From an uncultured Rivularia sp. (GTDB lineage: Bacteria; Cyanobacteriota; Cyanobacteriia; Cyanobacteriales; Nostocaceae), in NCBI GenBank assembly GCA_963665115.1, contig OY762007.1:4256001-4320000 (forward strand): a DNA stretch of 64,000 nt, read 5' to 3'. This document shows, piece after piece, positions 4,556 through 63,003 of this stretch; position 1 is the stretch's first letter; every line of letters begins with the position of its first letter. The position numbers and the translations under genes were made by a program. Below the pieces are notes generated by a model that was given only the letters and a program-made list of their open reading frames with translations, was not told where the DNA came from and made no database searches.

Positions 4556-4659
4556 CTGTCTAACCTGTTAACTGATAACAATATTTATTCTAAATGTGAA
4601 AAACAAATTGTGTATTGCTCTGATTGTTAACAATTGTTCTTTCCTCTTTTTATAGCGCT

Positions 4660-7600
4660 ATGGTTATAAAACTCAATCATTTCGATACTAAGACAAAGCA
4701 AGATACCGGAATTGAGGAAAAATTAGAGAATACGCTAGCAGAATACTTATTTCCTGGTGTTGAGTTTCGCATTGGCACTGCTTACCCTGAAGCCACTATT
4801 CCACAAGATTTAGAAGAACACAATGGAATGACTCTACAGTTCTCGGCTCGTAAAAGAATGTATTTTGCAAACGATCCAGATGTACGCTCATTACTCTACC
4901 CAAACCCTTCTGATGGTGCTGCTTATCCTCTACCATTTACACCTTGTCGAAGTTTTCACGAGTTGCATAATATTAGGATACTGGTAATTGATGATGTAAC
5001 GGGAGATTCAGGTGGAATTATTGCTACGAGTGATGCCAAAAAATTAGTTGGTGATTGTAAAGGCTTAATAGATAAAGATTTTGCCTCCTCGAACAATATA
5101 GAACCGCGTGCTTTTCAATTCAGACTTGGTATCAGACCTCAAAAACAAAGCCATGTGATGCGAATTGCTAAAGGTACGCTTGCACCCGAAAGACTAGATA
5201 AATTAGGAGAATCGAAATTACAGATAAGCGGTAGCGCTAGAAAAGGTACTATTAGAACCAGAACTGGATATGATATGGTACTGGCTACTTCTTCTTTTAA
5301 AGGTAGAAAAGGAGAAGACGCTATCAAACCTGGAGAATACCTATTTGATATAGGTTTAGGTGTTAAATCAGTCGCTCAATACAGACAACATAGTTTAGGA
5401 ACCCAGATTTTAGTTAATTATCCTCGCGCTGTCAAAGAAGAAATCTTACCAATTCTGAAGCAGCAAGCAGAAGAATTAGCATCATCACAAAAAAGTCCCA
5501 GGGAATTAGCCCAAAAATACGTTGAAAACTACGAACACCGCAAAGCACTTTTAGAAGATATTAAGAAGGAAACTATTACGGAAACAGATGAAAAATTATC
5601 AGAAAAACTAGCTATATTAGATTGCTTTTGTTGTAATACTGAAGATGAAGAAATTAACCAAGAAGAAGAATTAAGCGCAGAGCAAAAAGACTTATTAATC
5701 TATTCTTTATTAAAAGTAGATTTAAACAATTTTTGTCAACTAATTGAACATCCTAAAATCGTAGCCGAACTGCAAGAATTCGCTCGTAAAGAATGGGTTG
5801 ATATTGCTACCGGACGTTCAATAAAGTTTATGTCGGGTTTAGCTCAACCTAATTTAGATTTACAGGAAGATGAAATCTGTATTCCATATTTGAAAGAAGG
5901 TTTAGAAATTATAGTAACTCGTTCGCCTTTAATTAATTCAAATGGCGTAATTACCTTAAATAATAAACATTTACCGAAAATGCTATCGGGATGCGTTTAT
6001 ATAAATCCTAAAACAGCAATGGATAATATGCAGTGCGATTTCGATGGTGATTTACTAGCTTTTGCATCGAGTGAAGAGTTTCCAATAATGACAGAAGAAG
6101 TCAAACAAAAGAATTTACCTGTAAATAAGTACCCTGATATTGTCAAAAAAGAAAAAGTTCCCTATCAAGGAAGTTTTCCTGAAATTGCTGTTTCTGCGAT
6201 GGAAAATAAAATTGGGATTATTGCTAATGAAATTCAAAAAAATATTGCCCTTCGGTGTGAAATTGATGAATTACCGCAATCCATAAAAGTCGAATATATA
6301 CAAAAAGTTTCAACACATTTAAATTATATTTTATCAAAGCATAGTCATACAACTTTACAACTTCCAGAAGACAGATTAAATAGAATATATCAAATTGCTC
6401 GTACTGGTAATACATCTTTAGATACAAATCAAGTTGATATACAACTTCAATCCTTTAAAAAATTATTAAAAGATTATGTTTCAGAACTTAGTAACGAATT
6501 ACAAGTTGCTACTGACGGAGCTAAAAGTGCATTGCGACCTGATAATAATATTATTCAACATTGTCAAGTAGTAACTAGTTATAAAGAAGTAGAATGGCTG
6601 GCTGATAAGAAAAATACGGAAGCTTTTACTAATAAAGGTATGGCTACAAATGGTTTGAGTCCAATTGATTTAATGATTCAACAAACAAATCGAATATTTG
6701 AAGAAAACCAAATTATAGCTAGACCTATTGAACAATTTAGAAATCTTTATCCTACAATTGAATTTACCTCCGAACACAAACAGCAAGCTCAAAATATTAG
6801 ACATAAATATAATTCTTTAATAAAAGAACGTATTGAATTACAGGAAAGAAAAAAGATAGAACCGGGTGCTTATATAGTTATTAGTTCTCCAATAAGCGGA
6901 CGCAAATTAGAAGTTACTAATTTAATTAAATATGACATATCCAAAGATACTGAATTTTGGAATGCAACAGAACTTAGTATCACGATAAAACCAAGACAAC
7001 CTACTTTAAAATTACCCCATCCTTTATCTGCCTGTATTCAATATCAGACTCCTGAAGGTGTAAATAGAATTAAACCCATTGGCACAATTAGTATGAAATC
7101 AATGGCAGAAAATAATCTTAAACCTGGAATGACAATAAAACAAGGTAAAGTTGAATTTTACTTTGGAATTAGTCATAGTATGATTGATGCTTTGAAGCAG
7201 CAAACTCTTGAATACGTCGAGTCAATTAGAAATAGCACTCCGGATAATGAAAAGCTACAGCTAGCAGCTGCAATTCATGATATTAGTCATACCGAAGAAA
7301 ATAAAAATTATGTAGGACTAAAAAAGGCAGGTGTGGCGTTTTCTATATTTATCGACGAAGTTATAGGTCAATTAAATCAGTTACAGTTTACCCAAATGAG
7401 AGTGCTTGGTACTCAGTTCAATCATTATGCTAATCAAAACTTTGCTGGTGAAAAAGTCCCAATAAAATTTGAAAATGGAATTAATCCTCGTGCCCCCAAT
7501 CAAACTGCGCGTTGGATAATAGTAGAAGGTAAAAAACTCGGTACTATCAATGGTTCTTCCCCTCATTTACTTGCTGGGTGTGAAGCAATTGCTAGCATCA

Positions 7601-8457
7601 ATTCTCTTTCCAGTAAAAGCGTAGTTATTACTAGTTCAAAAAATCCCGATAATAAATTGCAGATTGATAAGGTTAATAAATATGCTTTTAAATCTAATCA
7701 GTGGCAGAATGAAGAAGCGAATATTGCTTTAGCTATAGGACAAACTAACCCTAGGGGCGCACCAACTGTTTTCGCAAAAGTAGATAATAAAATATTAGGA
7801 ACCGTTAATAAAAAATCAGTCAAATTTTTACAAGAAAAACTTAACGCTGTTGGTAAATCAATCCAGGGATTTACGTTTTCTGGTACTTTAAAAAATGCTC
7901 CTGCTAGCTATGCGGATATTATAATTGACCCCTCGACCGTAAAATTTCCACAAATTGAAACTAGCTCACAACAGGATAATAAAAGCTTGATTGAAAGTAA
8001 TGAGCCTGTTTGCACTGTTTTATTTTTTGAAGCATCTGTAGATAGTAAGTTTCAACAGAAAACAGAGCAAATAATGGCTAATATGCTTAAACGGGCTGTT
8101 GAACGTGCGGTGGAGTTAGGTTACTCCAAGGTACAGTTTGTTGATGTTTCTACAAATACCACAGAGTCTTCAGCTTTAAGAACTGTTGAACAACTTACGG
8201 CTGAACACAAAGATATTAAAGTTGATTTTATAGGTGGTGCGTCCGTAGAAGATGCAATTGGACTGATGAAGAAACCAACAGATATTGTAATTGGGATAAA
8301 AAATACTCAAACCATTGGCATGATTGATTTTGTCGCTGCTCAAGGAAAGGCGATCGCCACTTACAATCCCCAAACACAGAAATTTGATAGACGGAATTTA
8401 CCTGCTCCGAGAAAGACTGCTGAAATAACTAAAGATATTGAACGCGACGAACGTTGA
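4660..8457 (+). CDS. Single-subunit two-barrel (eukaryotic RdRP/YonO-like) RNA polymerase-like protein with putative C-terminal SLOG/YspA-like domain
   Basis: GDCKGLI (5050), AFQFRLG...AKGTL (5110-5181), IVTRSP (5911) and catalytic-type CDFDGD (6034-6051) in the expected order; ATG 4660 preferred over TTG 4624. Confidence 0.7.
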   Translation: MVIKLNHFDTKTKQDTGIEEKLENTLAEYLFPGVEFRIGTAYPEATIPQDLEEHNGMTLQFSARKRMYFANDPDVRSLLYPNPSDGAAYPLPFTPCRSFHELHNIRILVIDDVTGDSGGIIATSDAKKLVGDCKGLIDKDFASSNNIEPRAFQFRLGIRPQKQSHVMRIAKGTLAPERLDKLGESKLQISGSARKGTIRTRTGYDMVLATSSFKGRKGEDAIKPGEYLFDIGLGVKSVAQYRQHSLGTQILVNYPRAVKEEILPILKQQAEELASSQKSPRELAQKYVENYEHRKALLEDIKKETITETDEKLSEKLAILDCFCCNTEDEEINQEEELSAEQKDLLIYSLLKVDLNNFCQLIEHPKIVAELQEFARKEWVDIATGRSIKFMSGLAQPNLDLQEDEICIPYLKEGLEIIVTRSPLINSNGVITLNNKHLPKMLSGCVYINPKTAMDNMQCDFDGDLLAFASSEEFPIMTEEVKQKNLPVNKYPDIVKKEKVPYQGSFPEIAVSAMENKIGIIANEIQKNIALRCEIDELPQSIKVEYIQKVSTHLNYILSKHSHTTLQLPEDRLNRIYQIARTGNTSLDTNQVDIQLQSFKKLLKDYVSELSNELQVATDGAKSALRPDNNIIQHCQVVTSYKEVEWLADKKNTEAFTNKGMATNGLSPIDLMIQQTNRIFEENQIIARPIEQFRNLYPTIEFTSEHKQQAQNIRHKYNSLIKERIELQERKKIEPGAYIVISSPISGRKLEVTNLIKYDISKDTEFWNATELSITIKPRQPTLKLPHPLSACIQYQTPEGVNRIKPIGTISMKSMAENNLKPGMTIKQGKVEFYFGISHSMIDALKQQTLEYVESIRNSTPDNEKLQLAAAIHDISHTEENKNYVGLKKAGVAFSIFIDEVIGQLNQLQFTQMRVLGTQFNHYANQNFAGEKVPIKFENGINPRAPNQTARWIIVEGKKLGTINGSSPHLLAGCEAIASINSLSSKSVVITSSKNPDNKLQIDKVNKYAFKSNQWQNEEANIALAIGQTNPRGAPTVFAKVDNKILGTVNKKSVKFLQEKLNAVGKSIQGFTFSGTLKNAPASYADIIIDPSTVKFPQIETSSQQDNKSLIESNEPVCTVLFFEASVDSKFQQKTEQIMANMLKRAVERAVELGYSKVQFVDVSTNTTESSALRTVEQLTAEHKDIKVDFIGGASVEDAIGLMKKPTDIVIGIKNTQTIGMIDFVAAQGKAIATYNPQTQKFDRRNLPAPRKTAEITKDIERDER

Positions 8458-8492
8458 ATTTGTATCAACCTATAACAACGGATTAGCGTAAA

Positions 8493-10310
8493 ATGACAAT
8501 GCTTTTTGATATCGAGCAATATCACCATCGGGATTCACAACATCACAAAGGTGACTGGGATGGTGTAAAGTACGATTCTGCTTGGGATGATGGTTCTGCT
8601 TTTCCACAAATTAACCATAAAACTTCTTCAAAAGAAACAGCACGTAGTAAGAAAACAGACTGTTGGTATACCCCACCTCATATTATTGAATTAGTTATCC
8701 AGGTTTTGGGAGAAATAACTCTTGACCCTTGCGCCGATGATGGACGACATATAAGAGCAGCAAAGCATTATACCTTTGATGACGATGGGTTGAAGCAGCC
8801 TTGGTACGGGAAAGTTTATATGAACCCTCCGTACTCACATCCTGGTCTTTGGATGAAGAAGCTGCAACTAGAATTTGAAACGGGTAATGTGGATGAAGCA
8901 ATTGCTCTTGTACCTGCTGCTACCGATACCAATTGGTTATCTCCGGTTTTGAAAACTCAACCTGTATGTTTTTGGAAGGGGAGAATTAAGTTTTTAGGTC
9001 AAGATTATCAACCAAAATTATCTGCAAGACAGTCTCATGTGTTGGTTTATTGGGGTAACAATTGGCAGAAATTTAGGGAAGTATTTGAAGACTATGGAGT
9101 GGTATATTTCCCAATTCCCCCTGTTGATAATAACGAGGTGCTAGGGGAAAACATATCACTTAACAATTCCCCTAGCACCCGGATGGAAGATAAGAGCCAA
9201 ACCCTTGATAATAGTTCATCAACATCAAATCTTTCAAATGCTCAACTAAGTAATGATGACCAGGTGCTAGGGGGAAATATATCACCTAACAATTACCCTA
9301 GCACCCAGATAGAAGATAACAGCCAAACCCTTGATAGTAGTTCATCAACATCAATTCTTTCAAATACTCAAATAAGTAATGATAACCAGGTGCTAGGGGG
9401 AAATATATCACTTAACAATTCCCCTAGCACCCGGATGGAAGATAAGAGCCAAACCCTTGATAATAGCTCATCGACATCAATTCTTTTAAATACTCAAATA
9501 AGTAATGATGACCAGGTGCTAGGGGAAAACATATCACCTAACAATTCCCCTAGCAACCGAATAGAAGATAATAGCCAAACCCTTGGTAATAATTCATCAA
9601 CATCAATTCTTTCAAATACTCAAGTAAGTAATGATAACCAGGAGAAGCGGGAAAACATATCACCTAACAATTCCCCTAGCACCCGAATAGAAGATGGAAG
9701 CCAAACCCTTGATAGTAGTTCTTCAACATCAAATCTTTCAAATACTCAAGTAGGTAATGATAATCAGGTGCTAGGGGGAAATATATCACTCAACAATTCC
9801 CCTAGCACCCGAATAGAAGATGGAAGCCAAACCCTTGATAATAGTTCTTCAACATCAAATCTTTCAAATGCTCAAGTAAGTAATGATAACCAGGTGCTAG
9901 GGGGAAATATATTACCTAACAATTCCCCTAGCACCCGGATAGAAGATGAAAGTCAAACCCTTGTTAATAGTTCATCAAAATTAAGTCATGCAAATACTCA
10001 ACTAAGTAATGATGACCAGGTGCTAGGGGGAAATATATCACTAAATAATCCCCCTAGCACCTATCGTAAACGCGGTGAGGGCAGCGGTAATATTTCATGG
10101 GGTTATGCAAATGCTAATAGCACTAAAAAGAAACCAGTCAAACAGCTTTATTTCGAGTGGGAATATAGGGGTAAAAGAGGAAAGACTTATGTGCGATCGC
10201 ACTTCTTCGAGCAAGTTATTTCAATGAATGAAGCGAAAGTTCCAGTTGTAGTGATATTGAAATTATTAACTTACAATCCAAAAGTAGCGGGTGCTTTGGG
10301 TCTTAATTAG
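8493..10310 (+). CDS. Phage-type DNA N6-adenine methyltransferase with internal 42-aa tandem repeats
   Basis: DCWYTPP, LDPCA, YMNPPYS, ALVPAATDTNW and GRIKF motifs; S/N-rich repeats; basic C-terminal domain. Confidence 0.8.
   Translation: MTMLFDIEQYHHRDSQHHKGDWDGVKYDSAWDDGSAFPQINHKTSSKETARSKKTDCWYTPPHIIELVIQVLGEITLDPCADDGRHIRAAKHYTFDDDGLKQPWYGKVYMNPPYSHPGLWMKKLQLEFETGNVDEAIALVPAATDTNWLSPVLKTQPVCFWKGRIKFLGQDYQPKLSARQSHVLVYWGNNWQKFREVFEDYGVVYFPIPPVDNNEVLGENISLNNSPSTRMEDKSQTLDNSSSTSNLSNAQLSNDDQVLGGNISPNNYPSTQIEDNSQTLDSSSSTSILSNTQISNDNQVLGGNISLNNSPSTRMEDKSQTLDNSSSTSILLNTQISNDDQVLGENISPNNSPSNRIEDNSQTLGNNSSTSILSNTQVSNDNQEKRENISPNNSPSTRIEDGSQTLDSSSSTSNLSNTQVGNDNQVLGGNISLNNSPSTRIEDGSQTLDNSSSTSNLSNAQVSNDNQVLGGNILPNNSPSTRIEDESQTLVNSSSKLSHANTQLSNDDQVLGGNISLNNPPSTYRKRGEGSGNISWGYANANSTKKKPVKQLYFEWEYRGKRGKTYVRSHFFEQVISMNEAKVPVVVILKLLTYNPKVAGALGLN
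9137..10061 (+). repeat. 126-bp tandem repeat (7 full units plus a partial eighth), each with an internal inverted repeat
   Basis: GGTGCTAGGGG-N21-CCCCTAGCACC starts at 9137, 9263, 9389, 9515, 9641 (degenerate left arm), 9767, 9893 and 10019. Confidence 0.95.
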
Positions 10311-10339
10311 CTATCTTTTTTCATTTATCAACCTTTGCC

Positions 10340-10948
10340 TCAATTGCGTATATCTTTCCTGAGATTTTCTTGAGCGGACACACATACCAATAGCTTTCTT
10401 ACTCCCAACAATAATCGCCAACATATAGCATGAGTTAATCCTGTATAAAGCAAATTCCTGTTCAACATAACAAAATGTTGCGAGTACAATGGCAACAATA
10501 CAACAGGATATTCCGAACCCTGGGATTTGTGAATGCTAACGCTCCAAGCCAAAGCCAGTTCGTTTAAATCAGCATAATCGTAAATAACTTCGCGTTCTTG
10601 GAACTTGACAATTACTTCCTGTTCTTCGGTGTCAATATGAATAATAAAATCCATATCACCGTTAAAAACTTCCCGTTGGTAATAGGAAGGTTAATTGAAT
10701 TACCCTATCCCCTACTCGAAAAATTATTCCGCCTCTAGTTACTTCAACCTTCTGGGGGACTAGGAGGATTAATGAGTTTTTGCAGTACGTTGTTAAGATT
10801 GCGCGTACCTACCAAGCCGTTTCAACAGCTTGATGTTGTTCGGGTGATAGCGAAACTTTACGGCTTTGGCTAAAACGTTCTAACCAAGTATGAACACGGG
10901 GAATGTCGGGATTAATGGGTTGATGTAAACGAGAAAGTATAAGTTGCG
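10340..10948 (-). pseudogene. recD2: RecD2-like SF1 helicase remnant with internal deletion and frameshifts
   Basis: LALAWSVSIHKSQGSEYPVV...RNLLYTGLT, plus upstream fragments GLVGTRNLNNVLQ, FRVGDRVIQ and LSPEQHQAV in other frames. Confidence 0.8.
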
Positions 10949-14690: not shown

Positions 14691-16058
14691 CTATGCCCTT
14701 TTAATTAATTTAGTACGAGATGATTGATTACAAGGTAATATAACAATGAAAGTGCTACCTTTTCCAACTTCACTTTCTACTTCCAAACTACCGTGATGAG
14801 ATACTACAATAGCTTTTGCAATTGCTAATCCTAAACCCGAACCACCAGTATGACGAGAACGGTCACTATTAACTCGATAAAAGCGGTCAAAAACGTTAGA
14901 AAGTTCATTCTTGGGAATACCAATACCCGTATCTTTGACTCGAACTTCAGCTTCCGTTTCATACTTATCTAAAATAACTGTGACTTCCCCACCAGGTAAA
15001 GTATACTGAATTGCATTTACTATTAAATTAGAAAATAAGCGATAAAGCTGTTCGGTATTACCAATAATATTTATTTCCTTGTTAATACGAATTTCCGATT
15101 TCAAGGTAACATCAGATGAAATTGCCATTGCTGCAAATTCTTCTATCAAGTCCTCAATAATATCATTTAAAGAACATAATTCCCGCTGTACAGAAAGGGA
15201 TTGTCTATCAAAGCGAGAAAGCATTAATAAATCTACTACTAAACTAGTAAGACGTTGATTTTGACGCTTGATAGTTCCGAGAATATCCCATGCTTCTTTA
15301 ATGTCTAAATCTGGCATTAATAAAACTGAATCTATTGTTGCTTGAATTGCGGCTAACGGTGTTCTTAATTCATGAGCAGCGTCGGCTGTAAATTGTTGAA
15401 TTTGTCTGTAAGATTGATAAATTGGTCGCATTGCTAAACCTGCCAACCACCAACTAGCAAAAGCAATCATTGTCATCGCTGTCGGTAATCCTACTAACAG
15501 ACTTAATTTAACTGCATCCATATAGCTGTTAACATCGGCTATATTTCTTCCAACTTGTAAATATCCCCAATCGCGATTATCTTTGGTGTGTAATTCTAAT
15601 GACATTTGATGGTAAAAATTACCAGTATCGTCTTGAATTGTTTGCCAAAGTTTCTGATTAAAATCTGAAGATTCAGCTTGTGGGAAAGAACCTGCAACTG
15701 CTATTAAACGTGCCGAATTACCAAACAAACGCACGTAATAACCTTGATGAATTGCGTTTAGAATATGTCGTTGAGCAGTAGAATTTTGCGATATGCAACC
15801 CGTTTCTACTACACAAATACTTGGTAAAACTTCTCTTACAATTGGTTCTACTTTTTCGGGCTGTTTTAGCTTGGATTCTAAATTATTATGTAAACTTCTA
15901 GCGACAAATTCTAATTCTCTATCTAAAGCTTCCGAATGAGCATGAGATACTGCGGTGTATAAACCTGAGCCGCAAACGGTTAAAATTAAACCCATAACAA
16001 TAGCATACCAAAGTGCTAATCGAAATCGAGTTCTTTGAAAAAGTTTATTTTGATTCAT
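14691..16058 (-). CDS. rppB: Sensor histidine kinase, RppB/NrsS/CopS-like
   Basis: Two TM segments, FTADAAHELRTP H-box, N/G1/F/G2 boxes. Confidence 0.9.
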   Translation of the reverse strand: MNQNKLFQRTRFRLALWYAIVMGLILTVCGSGLYTAVSHAHSEALDRELEFVARSLHNNLESKLKQPEKVEPIVREVLPSICVVETGCISQNSTAQRHILNAIHQGYYVRLFGNSARLIAVAGSFPQAESSDFNQKLWQTIQDDTGNFYHQMSLELHTKDNRDWGYLQVGRNIADVNSYMDAVKLSLLVGLPTAMTMIAFASWWLAGLAMRPIYQSYRQIQQFTADAAHELRTPLAAIQATIDSVLLMPDLDIKEAWDILGTIKRQNQRLTSLVVDLLMLSRFDRQSLSVQRELCSLNDIIEDLIEEFAAMAISSDVTLKSEIRINKEINIIGNTEQLYRLFSNLIVNAIQYTLPGGEVTVILDKYETEAEVRVKDTGIGIPKNELSNVFDRFYRVNSDRSRHTGGSGLGLAIAKAIVVSHHGSLEVESEVGKGSTFIVILPCNQSSRTKLIKRA

Positions 16059-16066
16059 GTTTATAA

Positions 16067-16762
16067 TTAATTCTTAAAATTAAAACGATATCCCATACCA
16101 TGTAAAGTTTCGATGGGATTTCCACAGCCGCTAGCAGCTAATTTTCGTCGTAATAAACGTACCTGTGCGGCTACTACATTGCTACTTGATTCTGCACTTG
16201 CTTCCCAAAGTTGATTGCGAATTTGTTCGGTTGTGAGAATTTGGTTGGGGTGGTTCATAAAATATTCTAGTAACTGAAATTCTTTGTTAGTCAAAGACAT
16301 TTCTTGTTTATCTGATGAAGCATTTTTATTAATTATTGTATTATTCCCATAGTCCAAAGTTAGATTACCCATAGTAACTTGAGGGGGTTGAAATTGAGGT
16401 ACCCTTCTTTGCAAAGCTCGTAACCTTGCCAATAATTCCTCCATCCCAAAAGGTTTCACTAAATAATCATCTGCCCCAGCATCCAAACCAGCTACCTTAT
16501 CTTCCATACTATCTTTAGCTGTTAACATTAAAACGGGCATCGCATTTTTATTCTGACGCAGTTTTTGACATAATTCCAATCCCGAGATTCCTGGAAGCAG
16601 CCAATCGAAAATACCTATTTTATATTCCGTCCATTTATCTTCTAAAAGCTCCCATGCTTCATTACCATCCATTACCCAATCAACTAAATACCTTTGTTGA
16701 GTTAAAATTCGCTTAATCGCTGCACCCAAATCCGGTTCGTCTTCTACTAATAGTATTCTCAT
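16067..16762 (-). CDS. rppA: OmpR-family response regulator, RppA/NrsR/CopR-like
   Basis: MRILLVEDE, FDWLLPG, GADDYLVKPF and NVVAAQVRLLRRKL. Confidence 0.9.
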   Translation of the reverse strand: MRILLVEDEPDLGAAIKRILTQQRYLVDWVMDGNEAWELLEDKWTEYKIGIFDWLLPGISGLELCQKLRQNKNAMPVLMLTAKDSMEDKVAGLDAGADDYLVKPFGMEELLARLRALQRRVPQFQPPQVTMGNLTLDYGNNTIINKNASSDKQEMSLTNKEFQLLEYFMNHPNQILTTEQIRNQLWEASAESSSNVVAAQVRLLRRKLAASGCGNPIETLHGMGYRFNFKN

Positions 16763-16823
16763 AAAACACCCATAAAATTTGAGTTTAATAAATTTCACTC
16801 TAAAAATAGATTTACATAAAATT

Positions 16824-16840
16824 ATGAAATTAGGATGAAA
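16824..16840 (-). promoter_or_regulatory. TTTCAT-N5-TTTCAT box upstream of rppA
   Basis: ATGAAATTAGGATGAAA on the + strand. Confidence 0.8.
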
Positions 16841-16982: not shown

Positions 16983-16999
16983 ATGAAATCAAGATGAAA
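16983..16999 (-). promoter_or_regulatory. TTTCAT-N5-TTTCAT box between rppA and the Csp-like gene
   Basis: ATGAAATCAAGATGAAA on the + strand. Confidence 0.7.
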
Positions 17000-18446: not shown

Positions 18447-18478
18447 TTGACTCTCTAGTTAACTAGAGAGTTTATCAT
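18447..18478 (+). promoter_or_regulatory. MerR-type promoter/operator (autoregulatory)
   Basis: TTGACT-20 bp-TATCAT containing the perfect dyad ACTCTCTAGTTAACTAGAGAGT. Confidence 0.85.
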
Positions 18479-18511: not shown

Positions 18512-18937
18512 ATGAATAAATTAGCCTATCTAAAAATTGGAGAATTAGCGAAACAAACAGGACTTACCGTAGGAACTTTACGTTATTACAGCGATATCGG
18601 ACTTTTGCAACCCGCACAGAGAGGAGACAATGGTTATCGATATTATGCCGCGAATGCGTCCGAGCAAGTAAAATTTATCAAGAAAGCTCAAGCTCTGGGA
18701 TTTACCTTAGAAGAAATCAAACAAATTCTGGATGTTCGCAACGGTGGTGAAATTCCTTGTGATTTAGTACAAAGTTTATTAGAGAATAAAATCGAACAGT
18801 TGGCAATTCAAATTAAACAAATGACTTTGTTTAAGAGGGAGTTAGAAGAATATCGTGCTAATTGGGAAAATAAATCAAAGAAGACATTGAAACTCGAAGA
18901 AGTTTGTCCTTTAATCGATAGCGTCCCTTTACATTAG
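18512..18937 (+). CDS. MerR-family heavy-metal-responsive regulator
   Basis: KIGELAK...TLRYY...NGYRYY, AQALGFTLEEIK, PC and CPLI cysteines. Confidence 0.9.
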   Translation: MNKLAYLKIGELAKQTGLTVGTLRYYSDIGLLQPAQRGDNGYRYYAANASEQVKFIKKAQALGFTLEEIKQILDVRNGGEIPCDLVQSLLENKIEQLAIQIKQMTLFKRELEEYRANWENKSKKTLKLEEVCPLIDSVPLH

Positions 18938-19113
18938 CTCTGTATCGGATTATAGTTTCAAATTCTGAGAACATTTTATTCGCTTCATTTAAACTTTTTG
19001 CAATATCGAAAATGAATAAAACTATTATCAATCTCTGATTTTTATTCAGCTATATAAAGCTTTAATCCTCGGTGTTAATATTGACAATACATATTTGAAT
19101 TATAAGTAATTAC

Positions 19114-19206
19114 AAGAAAAGCTTAGTAGAACTTATTGCGATAATTGGGTATGGTGAAATATAGAGGAGTAACAGTGTTAACTGTTAGCAATAAGTCTAT
19201 TGAGCT
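19114..19206 (-). ncRNA. Candidate small RNA 1
   Basis: Downstream of box 19229 with -10-like CAAGAT; 5' and 3' ends pair in a ~18-bp stem followed by a U tract; loop carries ACUCCUC. Confidence 0.45.
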
Positions 19207-19228
19207 ATTTTCATCTTGACGGATAAAA

Positions 19229-19245
19229 ATGAAATTAAGATGAAA
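19229..19245 (-). promoter_or_regulatory. TTTCAT-N5-TTTCAT box with no downstream CDS
   Basis: ATGAAATTAAGATGAAA on the + strand. Confidence 0.7.
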
Positions 19246-19300
19246 TTTATCCTTTATTATCCTATTCAATAGAATAGTAAGAGATAAATCAAATAATTTA

Positions 19301-19783
19301 TCAATCATCATATGTATTAATTTGAGTAATGCCAAGTGGAATATTATCTGTGAACTCAGCTATTTTGGCATCAACTTTGAATTGCCAAGTTTCTGCATAA
19401 CCAGGAGTAATAACATCTTTCATCAAAATAGATAACTTTGTTTCAGGGGCTACTGGTTGTGAGAAAATGACTTGAGCTTTATTTTCATTTATAGAAACTT
19501 CCGTAGCTATTTTTTCACCTTCAGCATTTTTTACTTCTATCCCATCATCTATTTTTATTTCAGAAGGTATATCTATTGAAAGTCCCTCAAGAGGCTTCCC
19601 TTGTACATGGACTTCTATTTCGTAAGTAGCAGTCATTGCTTCTGCATCGTTTGGAAACGCAGCACTATCAATTATATGAGAAGCTTGATAATCATTTGGT
19701 TTGCCACTTGCTAATACAGCAGTAACCGGAGATGACAATAATAACGTAAAGGCAGCAGTGTAAATATTTTTTTTTAATTTCAT
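19301..19783 (-). CDS. Secreted DUF2808-like protein
   Basis: Signal peptide, FSQPVAPETKL motif; paralog of 57504 and 58225. Confidence 0.75.
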   Translation of the reverse strand: MKLKKNIYTAAFTLLLSSPVTAVLASGKPNDYQASHIIDSAAFPNDAEAMTATYEIEVHVQGKPLEGLSIDIPSEIKIDDGIEVKNAEGEKIATEVSINENKAQVIFSQPVAPETKLSILMKDVITPGYAETWQFKVDAKIAEFTDNIPLGITQINTYDD

Positions 19784-19844
19784 GACTATTATCCTCTACA
19801 ACTAATAAGACGAATCGTTCTATTTATAAGTATGGTTATTAGTT

Positions 19845-19861
19845 ATGAAATAGACATGAAA
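19845..19861 (-). promoter_or_regulatory. TTTCAT-N5-TTTCAT box upstream of DUF2808 gene
   Basis: ATGAAATAGACATGAAA on the + strand; CATACT 10 bp downstream on the - strand. Confidence 0.8.
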
Positions 19862-19938
19862 TTTTATCGTTAATTATAATATATTTTTATTTATAAATGC
19901 GAATGAGATTACAAGAATATACTTGTTTTTATAAAGTC

Positions 19939-20022
19939 AAGAAAACAAGTTTTTAATCCTATTGACAGGACTAAAAACTTGCTAATGGAATAAAATCTAG
20001 ATAAAAGCCAAAGAAGGCATAT
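19939..20022 (-). ncRNA. Candidate small RNA 2
   Basis: Downstream of box 20045 with -10 TATATT; ends in a 15-bp stem (19946-19981) plus U tract. Confidence 0.45.
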
Positions 20023-20044
20023 ATAAATAATATACGAGATAAAA

Positions 20045-20061
20045 ATGAAATTAGGATGAAA
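20045..20061 (-). promoter_or_regulatory. TTTCAT-N5-TTTCAT box with no downstream CDS
   Basis: ATGAAATTAGGATGAAA on the + strand. Confidence 0.75.
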
Positions 20062-20107
20062 TATTTTAGTTAGATTATTTTTTTTAATTTATTTATTTAA
20101 TCATAGT

Positions 20108-20212
20108 AAAAAAACGGACTTATAAATGTGCCCCTAGAGCATTTATAAGTCCGAGATTAAATCCATTAAATTAATTTAATGGAGAGCCGAGTATGAGGAA
20201 CTAACTCAACCA
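20108..20212 (-). ncRNA. Candidate small RNA 3
   Basis: Downstream of box 20235; hairpin 20162-20183 and a perfect 14-bp terminator stem (20115-20153) plus U7. Confidence 0.5.
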
Positions 20213-20234
20213 ATAACCAATTTCTCATAAACAA

Positions 20235-20251
20235 ATGAAATTAAGATGAAA
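20235..20251 (-). promoter_or_regulatory. TTTCAT-N5-TTTCAT box in the 3' region of the RND operon
   Basis: ATGAAATTAAGATGAAA on the + strand. Confidence 0.7.
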
Positions 20252-20299
20252 TTACTGAATAATAAAGTCTTTTTGATATAGTTAAAAATGCTTTTCATC

Positions 20300-23200
20300 T
20301 TAACCGTGCCATCTTAATTTTTTCCTCATCCCAGACAACCCATTCGTAATATCATCGACAAGCGAATAAACTACAGGTACAACAATTAAAGTCAGCAGTG
20401 TGGAAATAACCAAACCACCCAAAATTACCGTAGCGATAGGTGAATAAGCGTCCATCCCGGTTTCTGGAAAAAAGGCGAGTCGAAAAATTACAATGATTGT
20501 AGTAAAGGTGGTCATCACAATCGCTTTGAGTCGAACTGGTCCGGCTTCCCGAATTGCAATGTCTCTTGGTTCTCCTTCCTGACGTTTTGTCAAAATTAAT
20601 TCTAGTAATAAAATAGCTGCGGAAACTGATAAACCAGATAGAATAATAATTCCCAAAATCGAAACTGTAGACAAAGTTTGTCCTGCAAGCAATAGCGCTC
20701 CAAATACCCCTACCAACTGCAAAGGAATTGACAGCATCATTACCAAAGGTTGGATAAACGAACCAAATTGAATTACCAATATGAGATAAATCAGTAACAA
20801 AGAAACCACCAAGCCTTGTAAAAGTCGCTCAAACTCAATCATCATATCCGTCATGTCCCCCATCGAATCGATACCGTAACCGGGGGGAAAGTCTAATTTA
20901 CTACCCGCATTCATGGCGATCGCCATTGATAAGTCCATAGAAGCGGGACCATCTTTACGATAATATCCGTTGACATAAACCACCCGTTTTCCGTTGACTC
21001 GTTCAATTAACGTCGGTCCTTGTTCCCGTTGTAATGTTGCTACGGTACTTAGTGGAACTTGCCGATTGTCCGAGGTAGTAATATAGGTTGATGACAAGTC
21101 TTGCTGAGTTCCCCGGTCTTGTTCGTCGTACCGTACTAAAATAGAATTTTGTCTTAGATTGGGACGATTATAATATCTGCGAGTGTAACCCCCATTCAAA
21201 GCATAACGAGCTTGTTCGGCGATGTCTTTGATATTTAACCCTAGTTCCTTGGCTCTACGACGGTCAATTTTTAACTGAAATTCTGGCTGAGTCATTGCCG
21301 AACTTGTATGTGGCATTACTAAGTCTGGGGTGTCTTCAGCGATACCCAGCACACCCTGAGCTAAACGATGTAATTCGTCCAAATCTTCACCATAAACCGC
21401 CAACTGTACCGGCGCTGCCGATGTAGCCATTACGTCTACACCCATTTCCTTCATCGCAATGCGTCGCAAACCGGGAATAGTACTGCGAGCTTCGGTTTTG
21501 ACTTCATCAATAATTTGCCAAATATCCCTTTCTCGTGCCCCAACATCCTTGAGAGTCACAATCGCTGAAGCGGTATTGACTCCCCCCATGCTGTAACCAC
21601 TAAAGTAAGTACTGTTGCGCGTTAGTTCAAAACCAACTTGTGAAGAAACCTTTTCGACTTCCGGCTGTTCTAACAGAATTTTTTCAAACTTTTGAGCAAG
21701 CTGGTCAGTTTTACTAAAAGATGTCCCCGGTTCAAATTCTATCGTTGCCATAATTTGACCGGAATCACCCAAAGGCATCATTTCTTGCCCAATTAACGGA
21801 TATAAACTAAATGCTAGAACAATAGAAGCACCTGTCAAAGCTAAAGTAATTTCACGGTTTTTCATGCAGATGTCGAGCAACCAACCGTAACCTTGCTCTA
21901 ACTTATAAAAGCTGTAACGTATCGGAGTCAGCAATCTCTGCAACCAGGTTTTACGTCTGCCTTTTTGATGTAGTGGTTTAAGGAAGAATGCTGCAAGTAA
22001 AGGAATCAAAGTAATTGAAACAATCAGCGAAGAGAGAAAAGCAAACACCATCGGATAAACCAACCCGACAAACATCAGCCCAGTTAATCCACCAGCAAGT
22101 ATCGTCGGTAATAAAGCCGCAATCATTACACAGCTTGCAGCAGCACTTGCTAAAAATACCTCTCCCGTTCCTTTAATTGCTGCTTCGTGGGGTTTATGTC
22201 CTTCTTGTAGTTTCCGGTCAATGGAATCAATTACAATAATCGAGTCATCCACCAGTTTACCAATAGCCATCATCATCCCAATCAAAGTTGACGAATTAAG
22301 CGACATTCCAATTGGGATAAAAGGAAGCATCGATAGCGCTAGGGATGTGGGGATAGAAATCATTACAATAGCTGTGGCTCGGAAGTTTTCTAAGAAAACC
22401 AGAATTACCAAACCCGCAAGCACAACGCTAATCAGTAATTCCCCGGTGGTACTATCTTTAATTAAATTAACCAAATAAGAATTATCATAAGCAACCTCAA
22501 ATTCTAAACCCGGATACTGTGCCTGTATTTTGGTTAATTCAGCGCGTACCCGTTCGATAACTTGCGGCGAACTAGAATCCGGTTTTTGAATAACGTTTAC
22601 TGCTAATGCGGCTTCACCATTGTAGCGATAACCACTGCGACGTTCTTCATAAGTATCTTTAACAGTAGCAACATCTCTGACATAAACCACCTGTCCCGAC
22701 TTTTCCAACACCGGGTAATCCATCACCGCACGAGCATTCAGCGCTCGTTCGTCGGTACGTACCAGAATTTCACTATCTCCCCTCGTCAGCACCCCCGCAC
22801 CTTGACTAACATTATTTGCGTCGATCGCATCTCGTACTTGTAATATAGATAAACCGTAAGCAGCCAACTTTTGACGGTCAATAATTATCTGCAACTGTCG
22901 CCGATAACCGCCAAAAATTGACACCGCTTGTACATCCCGCACCTGAGTTAATCTATCAACCAAAGTGTTGTCAGCAAACTCCCGTAAACGTACCGGGTCC
23001 CAACCTTCTCCCCGTAAAGCCAGAGTTAATACAGGACGGTTGAGCGGGTCGATGGGTAAAACCCAGTAGGAACGGGTATTAATCCCATCAAGCGTCAAAT
23101 CTCCCTCCGCAGCAGTCATCACGCTTTGTACTTCCTGCACCGAGTTTTCAATATCTCCCCCCCATTCAAACTGCACAGAAACTAAAGACATATCCTGTTG

Positions 23201-23458
23201 CGAACTCGAACGGATAAACCGCACGCCATCTAAAACAGTTAAACGCTGCTCAATTGGTTTACTGATATAGGTTTCCACTTCATAGGGTGAGGAACCGGGA
23301 GCCATTGTCACAATTGCTACCAAAGGACTTTGGACATAAGGCATCATCCTTACCGGGAGTAGGAATAACGTAAGGGTAGCGAGGACGAGGATACCGATGT
23401 ATAAAGCCGCGAGTACTACCGGATTTTTGATTGACCAGCGAGTGAGGAAGTATTTCAT
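20300..23458 (-). CDS. RND efflux permease (AcrB/CusA superfamily, Met-rich, probably copper)
   Basis: 1052 aa, RND topology, GKLVDDSII and RLKAIVMT; several periplasmic Met clusters. Confidence 0.9.
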   Translation of the reverse strand: MKYFLTRWSIKNPVVLAALYIGILVLATLTLFLLPVRMMPYVQSPLVAIVTMAPGSSPYEVETYISKPIEQRLTVLDGVRFIRSSSQQDMSLVSVQFEWGGDIENSVQEVQSVMTAAEGDLTLDGINTRSYWVLPIDPLNRPVLTLALRGEGWDPVRLREFADNTLVDRLTQVRDVQAVSIFGGYRRQLQIIIDRQKLAAYGLSILQVRDAIDANNVSQGAGVLTRGDSEILVRTDERALNARAVMDYPVLEKSGQVVYVRDVATVKDTYEERRSGYRYNGEAALAVNVIQKPDSSSPQVIERVRAELTKIQAQYPGLEFEVAYDNSYLVNLIKDSTTGELLISVVLAGLVILVFLENFRATAIVMISIPTSLALSMLPFIPIGMSLNSSTLIGMMMAIGKLVDDSIIVIDSIDRKLQEGHKPHEAAIKGTGEVFLASAAASCVMIAALLPTILAGGLTGLMFVGLVYPMVFAFLSSLIVSITLIPLLAAFFLKPLHQKGRRKTWLQRLLTPIRYSFYKLEQGYGWLLDICMKNREITLALTGASIVLAFSLYPLIGQEMMPLGDSGQIMATIEFEPGTSFSKTDQLAQKFEKILLEQPEVEKVSSQVGFELTRNSTYFSGYSMGGVNTASAIVTLKDVGARERDIWQIIDEVKTEARSTIPGLRRIAMKEMGVDVMATSAAPVQLAVYGEDLDELHRLAQGVLGIAEDTPDLVMPHTSSAMTQPEFQLKIDRRRAKELGLNIKDIAEQARYALNGGYTRRYYNRPNLRQNSILVRYDEQDRGTQQDLSSTYITTSDNRQVPLSTVATLQREQGPTLIERVNGKRVVYVNGYYRKDGPASMDLSMAIAMNAGSKLDFPPGYGIDSMGDMTDMMIEFERLLQGLVVSLLLIYLILVIQFGSFIQPLVMMLSIPLQLVGVFGALLLAGQTLSTVSILGIIILSGLSVSAAILLLELILTKRQEGEPRDIAIREAGPVRLKAIVMTTFTTIIVIFRLAFFPETGMDAYSPIATVILGGLVISTLLTLIVVPVVYSLVDDITNGLSGMRKKLRWHG

Positions 23459-41462: not shown

Positions 41463-41535
41463 ACTTTCTAATTACTCTTGAATTTAACTCCTCATACCAT
41501 TTGATTAAATTCTCAATGCTAATCGTGCGGATATG

Positions 41536-41575: not shown

Positions 41576-42133
41576 TTAGTAAGTTTGATATTCTTTGAAA
41601 ATCTTGATTTCGCCATCTTTATTGAAAGATGCGATCGCAAATGGTTGTTTCTTTGCTGCTTCCATTCCTGGAGTACCTAATGGCATTGCGGGTACTGCTA
41701 ATCCTGCTTGCTTTGGTTTAGAAGCGACAAAACGTTTAATATCATCAGCAGGAATATGTCCTTCCATCACATAACCATCAATAACTGAGGTATGACAAGA
41801 TGCTAAGTTTTGAGGTACGTTATATTTCTGCTTGATTGCTTCCATATCATCGGTTTTAATGTCTGTAATTTTAAAACCGTGCTTCTCCATGTGTTTCACC
41901 CATTCACCACAACAGCCACAGTTCGGACTGCGATAAACGGTAACTTCTTTGACTCCGGAATAAGAGGGTTCTGTTTCCTTATCCCATACGCTAGTCATAG
42001 CCATAGCTTGAGAATTGCTACCAACGGTTTGAGTATTATTTCCCATCCCACCAAACCAGAATGTCCCTGCTACTCCTGCAACAGCAACACCCGCGATTAA
42101 AGAAACCAACAATTTAGAATTAGATTTAAACAT
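41576..42133 (-). CDS. DUF411 (CopG-like) metal-binding protein
   Basis: SPNCGCC, SCHT, EGHIPA and MPLGTPGME. Confidence 0.9.
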   Translation of the reverse strand: MFKSNSKLLVSLIAGVAVAGVAGTFWFGGMGNNTQTVGSNSQAMAMTSVWDKETEPSYSGVKEVTVYRSPNCGCCGEWVKHMEKHGFKITDIKTDDMEAIKQKYNVPQNLASCHTSVIDGYVMEGHIPADDIKRFVASKPKQAGLAVPAMPLGTPGMEAAKKQPFAIASFNKDGEIKIFKEYQTY

Positions 42134-42181
42134 TAATAAAACCTCACAATAATTTTTTTCTTAAGATTAAAACTTGACTTA

Positions 42182-42213
42182 ATTTTAAACTCTCTAGTTA
42201 GCTAGAGAGTCAA
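42182..42213 (-). promoter_or_regulatory. MerR-type promoter/operator for the DUF411-oxidase operon
   Basis: - strand TTGACT-20 bp-TAAAAT with dyad ACTCTCTAGCTAACTAGAGAGT. Confidence 0.85.
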
Positions 42214-42340
42214 TCTTTACCAATAAAATCAAATAACAGACGTTCCATATTGTTTCTTCGTTTGAAATTCAATTAATCTTTCAAAACTACAAATGGCAGC
42301 AGGTGTTTTTATGCTCCATTTATAAGTATTGCATTTCAAA

Positions 42341-42357
42341 ATGAAATCAAGATGAAA
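42341..42357 (-). promoter_or_regulatory. TTTCAT-N5-TTTCAT box upstream of the DUF411-oxidase operon
   Basis: ATGAAATCAAGATGAAA on the + strand; AATACT 10 bp downstream. Confidence 0.7.
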
Positions 42358-55235: not shown

Positions 55236-55332
55236 AAAAGAAAAAGGTTGTACTCTTAACGTAGAGTAACGCGAAGTACAACCGAGTGGTGTGTGTGTGA
55301 AAGTTTTGAATAATATAGTTATTTATGTTTAC
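55236..55332 (-). ncRNA. Candidate small RNA 4 (or terminated leader of the sigma gene)
   Basis: Downstream of box 55355; CACACACACACCACUC tract, then a GGUUGUACU/AGUACAACC stem plus U tract. Confidence 0.5.
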
Positions 55333-55354
55333 TTAATTAGTGTGACATCTTGAA

Positions 55355-55371
55355 ATGAAATTAGGATGAAA
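55355..55371 (-). promoter_or_regulatory. TTTCAT-N5-TTTCAT box
   Basis: ATGAAATTAGGATGAAA on the + strand; CACACT 10 bp downstream. Confidence 0.75.
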
Positions 55372-55396: not shown

Positions 55397-56779
55397 TCAG
55401 ATATTTGATGGGGGAATAACTTTCAAAGGTAGACGAATGCTAAAAATACTACCTTTACTCAATTGACTTTGTACCAGTATTTTTCCTCCATGTGCTTGAG
55501 CGATAACTTGTGCGATCGCCAATCCCAAACCCGAGCCACCACTGCGACGAGAGCGAGAAGTATTGACGCGATAGAAGCGGTCAAAAATTACTTGTTGTTC
55601 TTGAGGTGAAATGCCAATACCTGTATCAATTACTTCTATAACTGCATCGCCGTTGTTTTTTTTCAAAATAAGATTTATATTGCCACCAGCAGGAGTGTAT
55701 TGAATGGCATTGGCAATTAAATTAGAAAGTAGGCGTAACAGTTGGTCTTCATCTCCCATAACGTATAAGGGTTGATGAGATAAAATCGAGTATTCTAATC
55801 GCAAAGAAGATGCATTTGCTAAAGCTGAAAATTCTTCGATTAAATCCTCAATCAATATATTAAGAGAGCAAGGTTGCTTTGTAGGTATTAGAGTTTGCTG
55901 TTCCAATCGGGAAAGTAATAGCAAATCTTGTACTAATTCAGCCAAGCGAATATTTTGACGTTTTACCGATGTTAGAACATCTCGCGCTTGTTGTTCGGAC
56001 AGTTCAGAACTATCGAGTATAGTTTCTACCTTGGCATTAACTGCTGCTAGGGGAGTCCGCAATTCATGAGAGACATCAGAGGTAAACTGCTGCATTTGTT
56101 TGTAGGAGCGATTAATCGGTTGTATTGCCAAACCAGCTAGCCACCAACTCGAACCGCCAACTAATAGTATTGTAATTGGTAATCCAAATCCCAAAATCAA
56201 TTTAAAAGCCGCCAAACGATTATCTAGTTCTTTAAGACTGCGACCTACTTGTATGTAGCCCCAAAGTTGATTATTTTGGGTATGCAGTGGCAAAGATTTT
56301 TGACTGTAACGAATTCCTCTGGTGTCTTTGAGTGTTTGCCATCCTTTGGTTTGTACCTTCTGAGGTAATTCATTTGGAGGAAAGCCAGCCACAGCAATCA
56401 AATTTTTAGAATTATCAATAAAACGGACGTAATATATTTTATCTTGGTAAAAGGTACTAAAAATGCCGTGTTGAGAATGAACAAGTCGAATGTGGGTAGG
56501 AATTTTATTATTAATTGAACAATCGGAGTCAGGTAAGCATAGATTGGGTAAAACCACTTGAAAAATCGGCTCCAAGCGTTTGGGTTGCTGTAAAGTCGGT
56601 TCGATAACGCTGTGTAAAGTACCCGTGACAGCTTCTAATTCCCTATCAATGGAAAGCAGGTAAGCACGAATCATTACCTGGTAGATAGCGACACCGCACA
56701 GGCTCAAAAACAAACCCATAGCTACCCCATACCATGCCGCCAGTCGCCACCGAGTTTTATTAAATACTTTAATCTGCAT
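55397..56779 (-). CDS. rppB: Sensor histidine kinase, RppB/NrsS/CopS-like (second copy)
   Basis: FNKTRWRLAAWY, FTSDVSHELRTP and an HATPase domain; start MQIK at 56779. Confidence 0.9.
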   Translation of the reverse strand: MQIKVFNKTRWRLAAWYGVAMGLFLSLCGVAIYQVMIRAYLLSIDRELEAVTGTLHSVIEPTLQQPKRLEPIFQVVLPNLCLPDSDCSINNKIPTHIRLVHSQHGIFSTFYQDKIYYVRFIDNSKNLIAVAGFPPNELPQKVQTKGWQTLKDTRGIRYSQKSLPLHTQNNQLWGYIQVGRSLKELDNRLAAFKLILGFGLPITILLVGGSSWWLAGLAIQPINRSYKQMQQFTSDVSHELRTPLAAVNAKVETILDSSELSEQQARDVLTSVKRQNIRLAELVQDLLLLSRLEQQTLIPTKQPCSLNILIEDLIEEFSALANASSLRLEYSILSHQPLYVMGDEDQLLRLLSNLIANAIQYTPAGGNINLILKKNNGDAVIEVIDTGIGISPQEQQVIFDRFYRVNTSRSRRSGGSGLGLAIAQVIAQAHGGKILVQSQLSKGSIFSIRLPLKVIPPSNI

Positions 56780-57470
56780 TGGCAGGATTAAAGCGATAAC
56801 CCATACAGGGAATAGTTTCGATAAAAGTATCCCAACCATACTTAGATAATTTGCGTCGTAAAAGTCGCATTTGAGCCGCTACTACATTACTCACCCGTTC
56901 CGTATCAAATGTATAAAGATGATTCAAAATTTGGTCGCGGGTAACAATTACGTCAGGATGTTTCATCAAGTATTCTAATAAGTGAAACTCTTTTTTGGTT
57001 AAAGTAATTATTTTTGTTTCGCCATTAGCATACTGACAAGTAACTGCAAAATTACCGTAGTCTAAAGTTAGATTACCTACTTCCAAATGCTGGGACTGAA
57101 ATTGCGGTACGCGCCTTTGCAAAGCCCGCAACCGTGCTAATAATTCTTCCATTCCGAAAGGTTTTACCAAGTAATCATCCGCACCAGCATCCAAACCAGC
57201 AACTTTATCTTCCATGCTATCCCTAGCTGTTAATATCAGTACGGGTAATGGATTGTTCCGAAGCCGTAAATGCTTGCATAATTCCAAACCCGATAATCCC
57301 GGTAATAACCAGTCAAAGACTGCTAATGTATATTGATTTGAGTTATTTTGCAAGCAACTCCAAGCTTCATCCCCATCTAACACCCAGTCAACAATATATC
57401 TTTCTTTGCTCAATTTCTGCTGAATTGATGCACCCAAATCTGGTTCATCTTCTACCAGTAAAACTTTCAT
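56769..57470 (-). CDS. rppA: OmpR-family response regulator, RppA-like (second copy)
   Basis: MKVLLVEDE, FDWLLPG and NVVAAQMRLLRRKL. Confidence 0.9.
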   Translation of the reverse strand: MKVLLVEDEPDLGASIQQKLSKERYIVDWVLDGDEAWSCLQNNSNQYTLAVFDWLLPGLSGLELCKHLRLRNNPLPVLILTARDSMEDKVAGLDAGADDYLVKPFGMEELLARLRALQRRVPQFQSQHLEVGNLTLDYGNFAVTCQYANGETKIITLTKKEFHLLEYLMKHPDVIVTRDQILNHLYTFDTERVSNVVAAQMRLLRRKLSKYGWDTFIETIPCMGYRFNPANAD

Positions 57471-62800: not shown

Positions 62801-63003
62801 GGTAAACTAATTAAAGATTCTACTTCTTCGGGAGCTAATCCCGGTGCTTCGGTTTGAATTTCTACTTGGGGTGGAGCAAAGTTAGGAAAAACATCCAAAG
62901 GCATTTGAGTTAGGTTGTAAACTCCTAACATCATGACAATCATTGCTCCAATCACCACCAGCCACCGCTGTACAATCGACCATTTCAGAATGTTATCAAT
63001 CAT
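59826..63003 (-). CDS. CusA/CzcA-family heavy-metal RND permease (apparent +1 frameshift at G6 61208-61213)
   Basis: PLDVFP, GSVVDDSIV and ERLVAILMT; removing one base gives DDPRITSVQMR and joins ORFs 61123 and 59826. Confidence 0.9.

Follow-up and report, generated by a model that had tools for sequence, protein, structure and literature searches.

Among the described cyanobacterial two-component systems, the locus reported here compares most directly with CopRS (Hik31/Rre34) of Synechocystis PCC 6803. In the available text of its description, CopRS seemed to govern copMRS and copBAC only, the CopR motif was given as TTCATN4-5TTCAT, and the outputs were mRNAs only (PMC4182526). The window analysed here, a stretch of 64,000 nucleotides from an uncultured Rivularia sp., sits inside a metal-resistance island of 62 kb, in a genome of 8.7 Mb. 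This island carries the same box as copM and copB of the CopRS regulon, its regulator is like those of the CopRS systems, including All7584/All7583 and All7606/All7605 of Nostoc PCC 7120, and the gene kit of the regulon (RND efflux, multicopper oxidase and a four-helix DUF326 protein) is also found near its units. The difference lies in the outputs, since several boxes of the island would drive short, gene-free, terminated units. Two of them, U1 and U2, had been proposed from the sequence as metal-induced small RNAs (sRNAs); both were recovered, and three more had been missed, U3 and U4 in the window and U5 7 kb beyond it, from which at least five box-driven sRNA units (U1 to U5) are inferred in the island.

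Control by cyanobacterial CopRS has been described for efflux and copper-binding genes only, and a set of sRNAs would widen that description. In the literature searched, which was thin on subscription papers, no sRNA was found under cyanobacterial CopRS, NrsRS or RppAB. Sets of sRNAs controlled by two-component systems and sRNAs with the Yfr1 motif are already known; the candidate novelty is such units under a CopRS-type box. In streptococci, CiaRH is not known as a dedicated metal sensor. It places several sRNAs, the Ccn/csRNAs, under one two-component regulator, with a link to zinc resistance in the accessible part of the report (PMC11478796). The streptococcal csRNAs are five homologous RNAs, whereas the island units have no fewer than four scaffolds that are unrelated to each other, and their island is mobile. 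In enterobacteria, porins are repressed by the sRNAs MicF and OmrA/B, and MicL and DapZ are examples of 3'-UTR sRNAs with an internal promoter. By its sequence U1 fits this last form, with its own promoter just past a stop codon and a terminator that it would have in common with the mRNA; it is, however, also found behind another gene (locus L028), the form does not apply to U2, and U2, U3 and U4 differ from it in being free-standing. In Pseudomonas aeruginosa, the metal two-component systems CzcRS and CopRS lower a porin in a process that needs Hfq, and the accessible part of that report names no sRNA (PMC5083921); this is a different phylum, with no sequence link to the island. The likeness to Yfr1 (RF01116) and Yfr10-like RNAs is closer at the level of the seed, with the exact 11-mer in U5 and related CU-rich seeds in U1, U3 and U4, and the predicted porin and murC targets of Yfr1 overlap with those predicted for island units. 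However, Yfr1 is near-constitutive and encoded between guaB and trxA, whereas the island units stand under the box of a metal regulator and give no RF01116 match.

The reading favoured here is that U1 and U2 are sRNA genes under CopRS-type two-component control, induced by metal (probably copper) and base-pairing with mRNAs. Judged from sequence, this is on balance probable; that the units are real induced transcripts is considered quite probable, and that they are base-pairing regulators somewhat probable.

The box as a promoter element

The box in the island is the direct repeat TTTCAT-N5-TTTCAT, and it is a promoter element. The window holds 11 boxes against 0.45 expected, and 15 of the 16 strict copies found genome-wide fall within the island, 13 of these 15 being followed by xAxxxT 10 nt downstream. 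By extending the count to the window and 86 loci, which are the surroundings of related regulators, xAxxxT was found at an offset of exactly 10 nt in 232 of 268 boxes, against 2–64 for other offsets. The identical box form stands ahead of Synechocystis copM and copB; counted from TTCAT to TTCAT, the gap in the island box is 6 nt, compared with the published N4-5. In the available text of the Synechocystis study, the motif is also found ahead of mntC and the nrs genes, without copper response (PMC4182526), and therefore the box does not name the metal.

On the beta plasmid of Nostoc PCC 7120, 11 transcript starts were predicted from boxes, and five of them (79531, 89203, 90096, 133055 and 122866) lie at most 3 nt from 5' ends given in the accessible part of a published data set, four of the five at most 1 nt away (PMC10287535). 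The other six are unmatched in that part, including both that lead into sRNA-like units: the starts at ~79200 and ~90946 are absent from its 54 beta-plasmid units (PMC10287535), and also from the four beta-plasmid rows in the accessible part of a second set (PMC4734099). These published transcript sets, as far as available, stem from experiments on nitrogen, and no beta unit among the 54 is shorter than 142 nt. One of the matched box-driven genes is all7633, whose induction by copper is described in the available text of another study (PMC4335983). In the proposed scheme, a phosphorylated regulator of the RppA/CopR type would bind the box over the -35 position and activate transcription.

Island setting and regulators

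U1 and U2 occupy a 516-nt spacer between the RND permease and DUF2808 genes, all on the minus strand. The neighbouring features, in window coordinates, are:

26062-26047, minus strand: box of the RND operon, driving the operon that ends in the RND permease
20300..23458, minus strand: RND permease, terminal gene of this box-driven operon, with U1 in its 3' region
19301-19783, minus strand: DUF2808 gene, driven by a third box (19861-19845)
14691..16798, minus strand: RppA/RppB (CopR/CopS-like) two-component pair 1, itself behind two boxes
55397..57470, minus strand: RppA/RppB two-component pair 2, identified by profile match

Because the DUF2808 gene has its own box, U2 is not its leader. Both regulator/kinase pairs score above the NCBIfam cut-offs for RppA and RppB, and pair 1 is the likely activator of the boxes. 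The nearer regulator shares 63% identity with Synechocystis CopR and 77% with Nostoc PCC 7120 All7584, which the available text of one study describes as a CopR homologue of unknown role (PMC12282138).

Two boxes lie ahead of the regulator gene of pair 1, at 16983-16998 and 16824-16839 of the window. At the far one, the -10 pattern is absent in several relatives, and this box may serve the divergent DUF326 gene.

Anatomy of U1 and U2

The box, -10 element, hairpins and terminator of both units were found where the original prediction had placed them:

20235..20251, minus strand: U1 box, TTTCAT-N5-TTTCAT, ~50 nt past the RND stop codon
20219..20224, minus strand: predicted U1 -10 element GAAATT, 10 nt after the box
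20108..20212, minus strand: predicted U1 sRNA of ~105 nt, with a seed hairpin, an AU-rich hairpin and a terminator
20191..20200, minus strand: candidate U1 seed UUCCUCAUAC, two C-to-U changes away from the part CUCCUCACAC of the Yfr1 motif
20108..20153, minus strand: U1 intrinsic terminator, a perfect 14-bp stem (20153-20140 with 20128-20115) and U7 ending at 20108
20045..20061, minus strand: U2 box, CopR/RppA-type
20029..20034, minus strand: predicted U2 -10 element TATATT, 10 nt after the box
19939..20022, minus strand: predicted U2 sRNA of ~85 nt, with a small 5' hairpin, a conserved single-stranded stretch and a terminator (19981-19939)
19997..20020, minus strand: 7-codon micro-ORF in U2

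The first hairpin of U1 spans 20211-20185, with UUCCUCAUACUC beginning at 20200 and lying mostly in the loop, and a second, palindromic hairpin spans 20183-20162. In U2, the terminator stem has 15 bp including one G-U (19981-19967 with 19960-19946) and is followed by UUUUCUU to 19939. The folding z-scores are -6.6 for U1 and -5.9 for U2, and none of 200 shuffles folds as well in either case. Within the 516-nt spacer, two long stems with a U tract arose in none of 2000 shuffles and one in 4 of them; a stock terminator scan called no site in the U1/U2 region and missed both stems. Rfam gave no match in the window at gathering score, with chance-level matches only at 18900-20320. As originally predicted, U1 holds no credible ORF, none being common to 11 homologues; for U2 the claim needs qualifying, as the 7-codon ORF at 20020-19997 is kept in 8 of 8 homologues.

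Conservation and the question of leftovers

In 27 genomes of the genus, box-free covariance models found U1 ten times and U2 eight times (one genome each), counts in which related genomes are not independent samples. Among 151 genomes of the family, U1 occurs in three, all within the genus, with none in the 147 family genomes outside it; U2 also occurs in three, namely the own genome, a weak boxed copy in Calothrix and one match without a visible box. The covariance search proposed with the original prediction recovered both units within the genus, and U1 nowhere in the family beyond it. A metagenome pattern scan returned 56 matches, of which four are true U1 copies.

Every locus inspected, 13 for U1 and 8 full ones for U2, retains box and -10 element; most of these loci were first retrieved with a query that contained the box. 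In the U1 -10 element, the A of position 2 and the T of position 6 are present in all 13. The order of genes around the units varies while the box stays, with arrangements U1-U2-U3 and U1-U3, U1 after another gene (L028) and U1 after another, insertion-like ORF. U1 and U2 are conserved and reshuffled as whole modules. In a comparison of three loci against three, between-clade identity in U2 is 0.91 for the promoter and 0.85 for the 5' part, compared with 0.65-0.73 at four-fold sites and 0.50 in the spacer that follows, so that both parts of U2 are more conserved than synonymous sites. In the distant Calothrix copy, promoter and terminator are kept and the 5' part is different. The 5' part of U1 has an identity of 0.60 between clades, which is not above synonymous sites, and its seed drifts among homologues, with indels. 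The U1 terminator covaries (6 of 15 pairs changed on both sides, a score reached by 0 of 500 shuffles), and the covariation of U2 is not above shuffles, 66 of 500 reaching its score.

An origin of U1 and U2 as repeats or MITEs was considered and rejected: no second genomic copy appeared among the BLAST matches listed, and the covariance models find one each.

The same data bear on the reading that the units are leftovers or plumbing, with U1 forming the RND operon's 3' UTR and terminator, U2 a second, insulating terminator, the boxes relics or spare sites, and the transcripts idle. The U1 terminator probably serves the RND operon mRNA as well as U1, because it is the first terminator after the RND stop codon; a caveat to this effect had accompanied the original prediction and probably holds, as a shared rather than an exclusive role. 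Clear constraint in U1 is limited to box and terminator, the island decays and rearranges, a deletion at L027 having joined an RND remnant to the U2 terminator, and the target search for U1 and U2 described below came up empty. However, a terminator needs no promoter, and yet the spacing of box and -10 is kept in all the U1 and full U2 loci inspected; U2, whose promoter and 5' part are conserved above neutral, already stands behind a terminator; and, in the case of U3, box-driven structured RNAs are maintained across families. Idle leftovers are rated as rather unlikely, and the reading of U1 and U2 as regulated sRNA genes is kept.

Sister units and likeness to Yfr1

The further units and their counterparts in Nostoc PCC 7120 are:

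19229..19245, minus strand: U3 box, with a -10 element CAAGAT 10 nt downstream
19114..19206, minus strand: predicted U3 sRNA of ~93 nt, a single long stem joining both ends and a U tract
L114:34109-34202 = NC_003240.1 ~79201-79108, minus strand: U3 homologue on the PCC 7120 beta plasmid, matched by the U3 model
L114:45870-45950, minus strand: box-driven unit of the PCC 7120 beta plasmid with a U1/U2-like terminator
55236..55371, minus strand: U4, with box (55371-55355), start near 55332, a CACACACA stretch and a terminator; paralogue of U5
G000:C1 ~4326989-4326862 (L177), minus strand: U5, 7 kb past the window, with box, two hairpins and a terminator

U3 has a CU-rich loop with ACUCCUC and CACC, and its stem covaries. 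The U3 model matches 25 of 151 genomes of the family, in 20 of 68 genera, and three genomes of another family in a set of 151 genomes of the order. With this box-free model, a box was found upstream in 29 of 32 inspected matches, two of the three without a box being among the weakest; from these 32 loci the own genome and one training locus were left out, and at least one other is a training sequence. Many U3 loci lie ahead of a regulator gene, usually with its own box, or directly beside a porin, and five U3-neighbour ORFs that were tested are OprB porins. The homologue on the PCC 7120 beta plasmid (~79200-79108, minus strand) lies just upstream of all7584 and makes the proposal testable in a model strain.

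A DNA search with U5 matched 8 of 27 genomes of the genus, one of them through the box alone. Further box-driven units of 70-90 nt were found in plasmid islands of Nostoc and Calothrix (L031:7782, L032:7346, L033:3562 and L033:9701), with CUCCU-type loops or CACAC stretches and terminators. Of 84 gene-free box leaders, 23 have motifs of the CUCCUC type, compared with 9 of 148 mRNA leaders, counts that are inflated by kin.

U5 carries the exact Yfr1 11-mer, one of three copies in the genome, unpaired between its hairpins and the terminator; the available text describes the same layout for Yfr1 itself (PMC2190773). The exact motif ACUCCUCACAC is found in neither U1 nor U2. The U1 seed agrees with it at 8 of 10 positions, with changes that are wobble-compatible, and lies partly in a stem, and U2 lacks the Yfr1 motif. 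The RF01116 covariance model gave no match in the window or at U5, whereas the canonical yfr1, which lies between guaB and trxA and away from the island units, scored 62.5 bits as a positive control. Among 401 genomes of the order, the combination of box and exact Yfr1 motif was found in the own genome only, and U5 copies with the exact motif also occur in other genomes of the genus. At two published additional families of Yfr1-motif sRNAs of PCC 7120, no box was found at the diagnostic distance.

One PCC 7120 sRNA with the Yfr1 motif, at 3750139f, belongs to a family (L297-L310) with GTTAC direct repeats upstream and, in some genomes, tandem copies. These repeats resemble RpaB HLR1 sites, and RNAs with a Yfr1 seed may be wired to several different regulators.

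Predicted targets and porins

Targets were predicted on start regions of the own genome only, with genes from a crude caller, and plain duplex ranking was noisy. A seed-first pipeline recovered the porin and murC targets of Yfr1, both known target classes in the available text of (PMC6974561). Of the 16 genes of the porin family, the U5 seed brought 8 into the top 34 of 6805 genes, the strongest porin prediction among the units, and Yfr1, as the control, brought 9 into the top 67. For the U3 seeds, the median number of the 16 porins ranked in the top 2% was 4-5, against ~1 for shuffles, and for the U4/U5 seeds the number was 2-10, against 0-4 for shuffles. The best duplex of U3 among 11,660 start regions was with a Mur ligase of the murC type. 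The U1 seed placed 6 of 16 porins in the top 2%; in both of two controls, its subsample score of 4 of 16 was reached by shuffles in 2 of 25 trials, and among the seeds of 11 U1 homologues, 8 placed 0-1 porins in the top 2%. For U2, porin pairing was found with none of eight seeds.

The original prediction had also proposed a target search, and nothing convincing emerged for U1 or U2 from the pipeline that recovers Yfr1 targets. Pooling of homologue seeds on start regions of the own genome gave no conserved target for either unit. Porins, on these model predictions, are slightly favoured as targets of U3 and U5, doubtful as targets of U1 and scarcely credible as targets of U2.

The leader of the multicopper oxidase pairs with U1 over 14 contiguous bases (-20.9 kcal/mol; 41484-41497 of the window, minus strand), at a site 22-35 nt upstream of the start codon. 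As a U1 target this gene was set aside and kept as a lead only, the site being present in 3 of 6 retrieved leaders (11 loci given), all of one clade.

It may also be asked if the RNAs, once made, would act as sponges or decoys for a protein or for another sRNA such as Yfr2 instead of repressing mRNAs. In the accessible part of its description, Yfr1 and Yfr10 are bound by Yfr2 at the conserved motif that they have in common (PMC6778093); several different seeds stand under one box in the island, and U1 and U2 lack clear mRNA targets. However, the U5 and U3 seeds are predicted to pair well with porin start regions, and a role as sponges is considered quite improbable.

The micro-ORF of U2

Translation of U2, as a leaderless mRNA for a 7-residue peptide or with an effect in cis, is given a low probability: the ORF begins ~2 nt past the predicted transcript start, it is unbroken in each of the 8 homologues, its stop codon marks the end of the conserved block and, of the three differences between clades that fall within it, two are synonymous, but any ORF inside the conserved 24-nt block would be kept, the same clade changes lengthen the 5' hairpin, one homologue has a GTG start and the distant Calothrix copy retains promoter and terminator with a different 5' part. 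Seven codons are too short for a substitution test of the coding type.

Proposed mechanism and significance

Promoter anatomy, conservation, modular shuffling, covariation of the U1 terminator and the Yfr1-like seeds of the sister units favour the interpretation of U1 and U2 as sRNA genes controlled by a two-component system, the original suggestion, which is in part supported. Three runs from one mat metatranscriptome sample matched only pieces of relatives and are uninformative about expression, and a look-up of sequencing runs listed no RNA run as holding the sequence.

Under the sRNA reading, the CopRS-type system encoded in the island would switch on U1 and U2 under metal stress, from predicted starts near 20212 and 20022, and yield RNAs of ~105 and ~85 nt. 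Yfr1-like seeds, those of U5, U3, U4 and weakly that of U1, would then cover the GUGUGAGGA ribosome-binding site of mRNAs for housekeeping OprB-type porins and cell-wall genes, so that copper influx would go down while the efflux genes are induced. Silencing of porins is the least supported step of this proposal, and the predictions behind it come from U3, U4 and U5 more than from U1 and U2.

The idea of porin silencing has a good rationale in observations made with copper elsewhere. In the available texts, porin mutants of PCC 7120 resist copper (PMC9705863) and porin genes of Synechocystis drop under copper (PMC4182526). In the literature searched, no regulator linking copper stress to a porin decrease was reported; box-driven sRNAs, if confirmed, would supply this link, and a Yfr1-like seed would give mobile islands a hold on core genes of the envelope. 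In a comparison of six porin leaders from the retrieved loci, the four box-driven OprB-type porins (L101, L108, L109 and L127, three of them close kin) have a degenerate Yfr1 site, and the two boxless ones keep it. A wider scheme, offered tentatively as a speculation, is that mobile CopRS-type islands of filamentous cyanobacteria carry metal-induced sRNAs which borrow the Yfr1 seed and silence chromosomal porin and cell-wall mRNAs, while a box-driven island porin with a mutated site escapes, U1 and U2 being recent, genus-specific recruits. In such a scheme, a layer of RNAs encoded on a plasmid would exchange one porin for another under copper.

Other features of the island

Plasmid-type genes on one edge of the island (4624-10654) suggest that an element has integrated there; they encode a protein of 1277 aa that matches nothing in Pfam, a methylase of the Dam type with a repeat tract and a helicase-like fragment. 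In the island of a relative (L027, G013:C3, 2400-2620), deletions have fused the 3' part of U2 with what remains of the RND gene, and the joint 20008-20353 of such an RND-U2 fusion is present in runs X4 and X6. The second RND permease of the window (59826-63003) is broken into two overlapping ORFs. The operon of DUF411 and the multicopper oxidase has a box-driven, structured leader of 185 nt (42133-42356 of the window), which contains the palindrome CTCTCTAG...CTAGAGAG, similar to a MerR operator; the same palindrome occurs near 18470.
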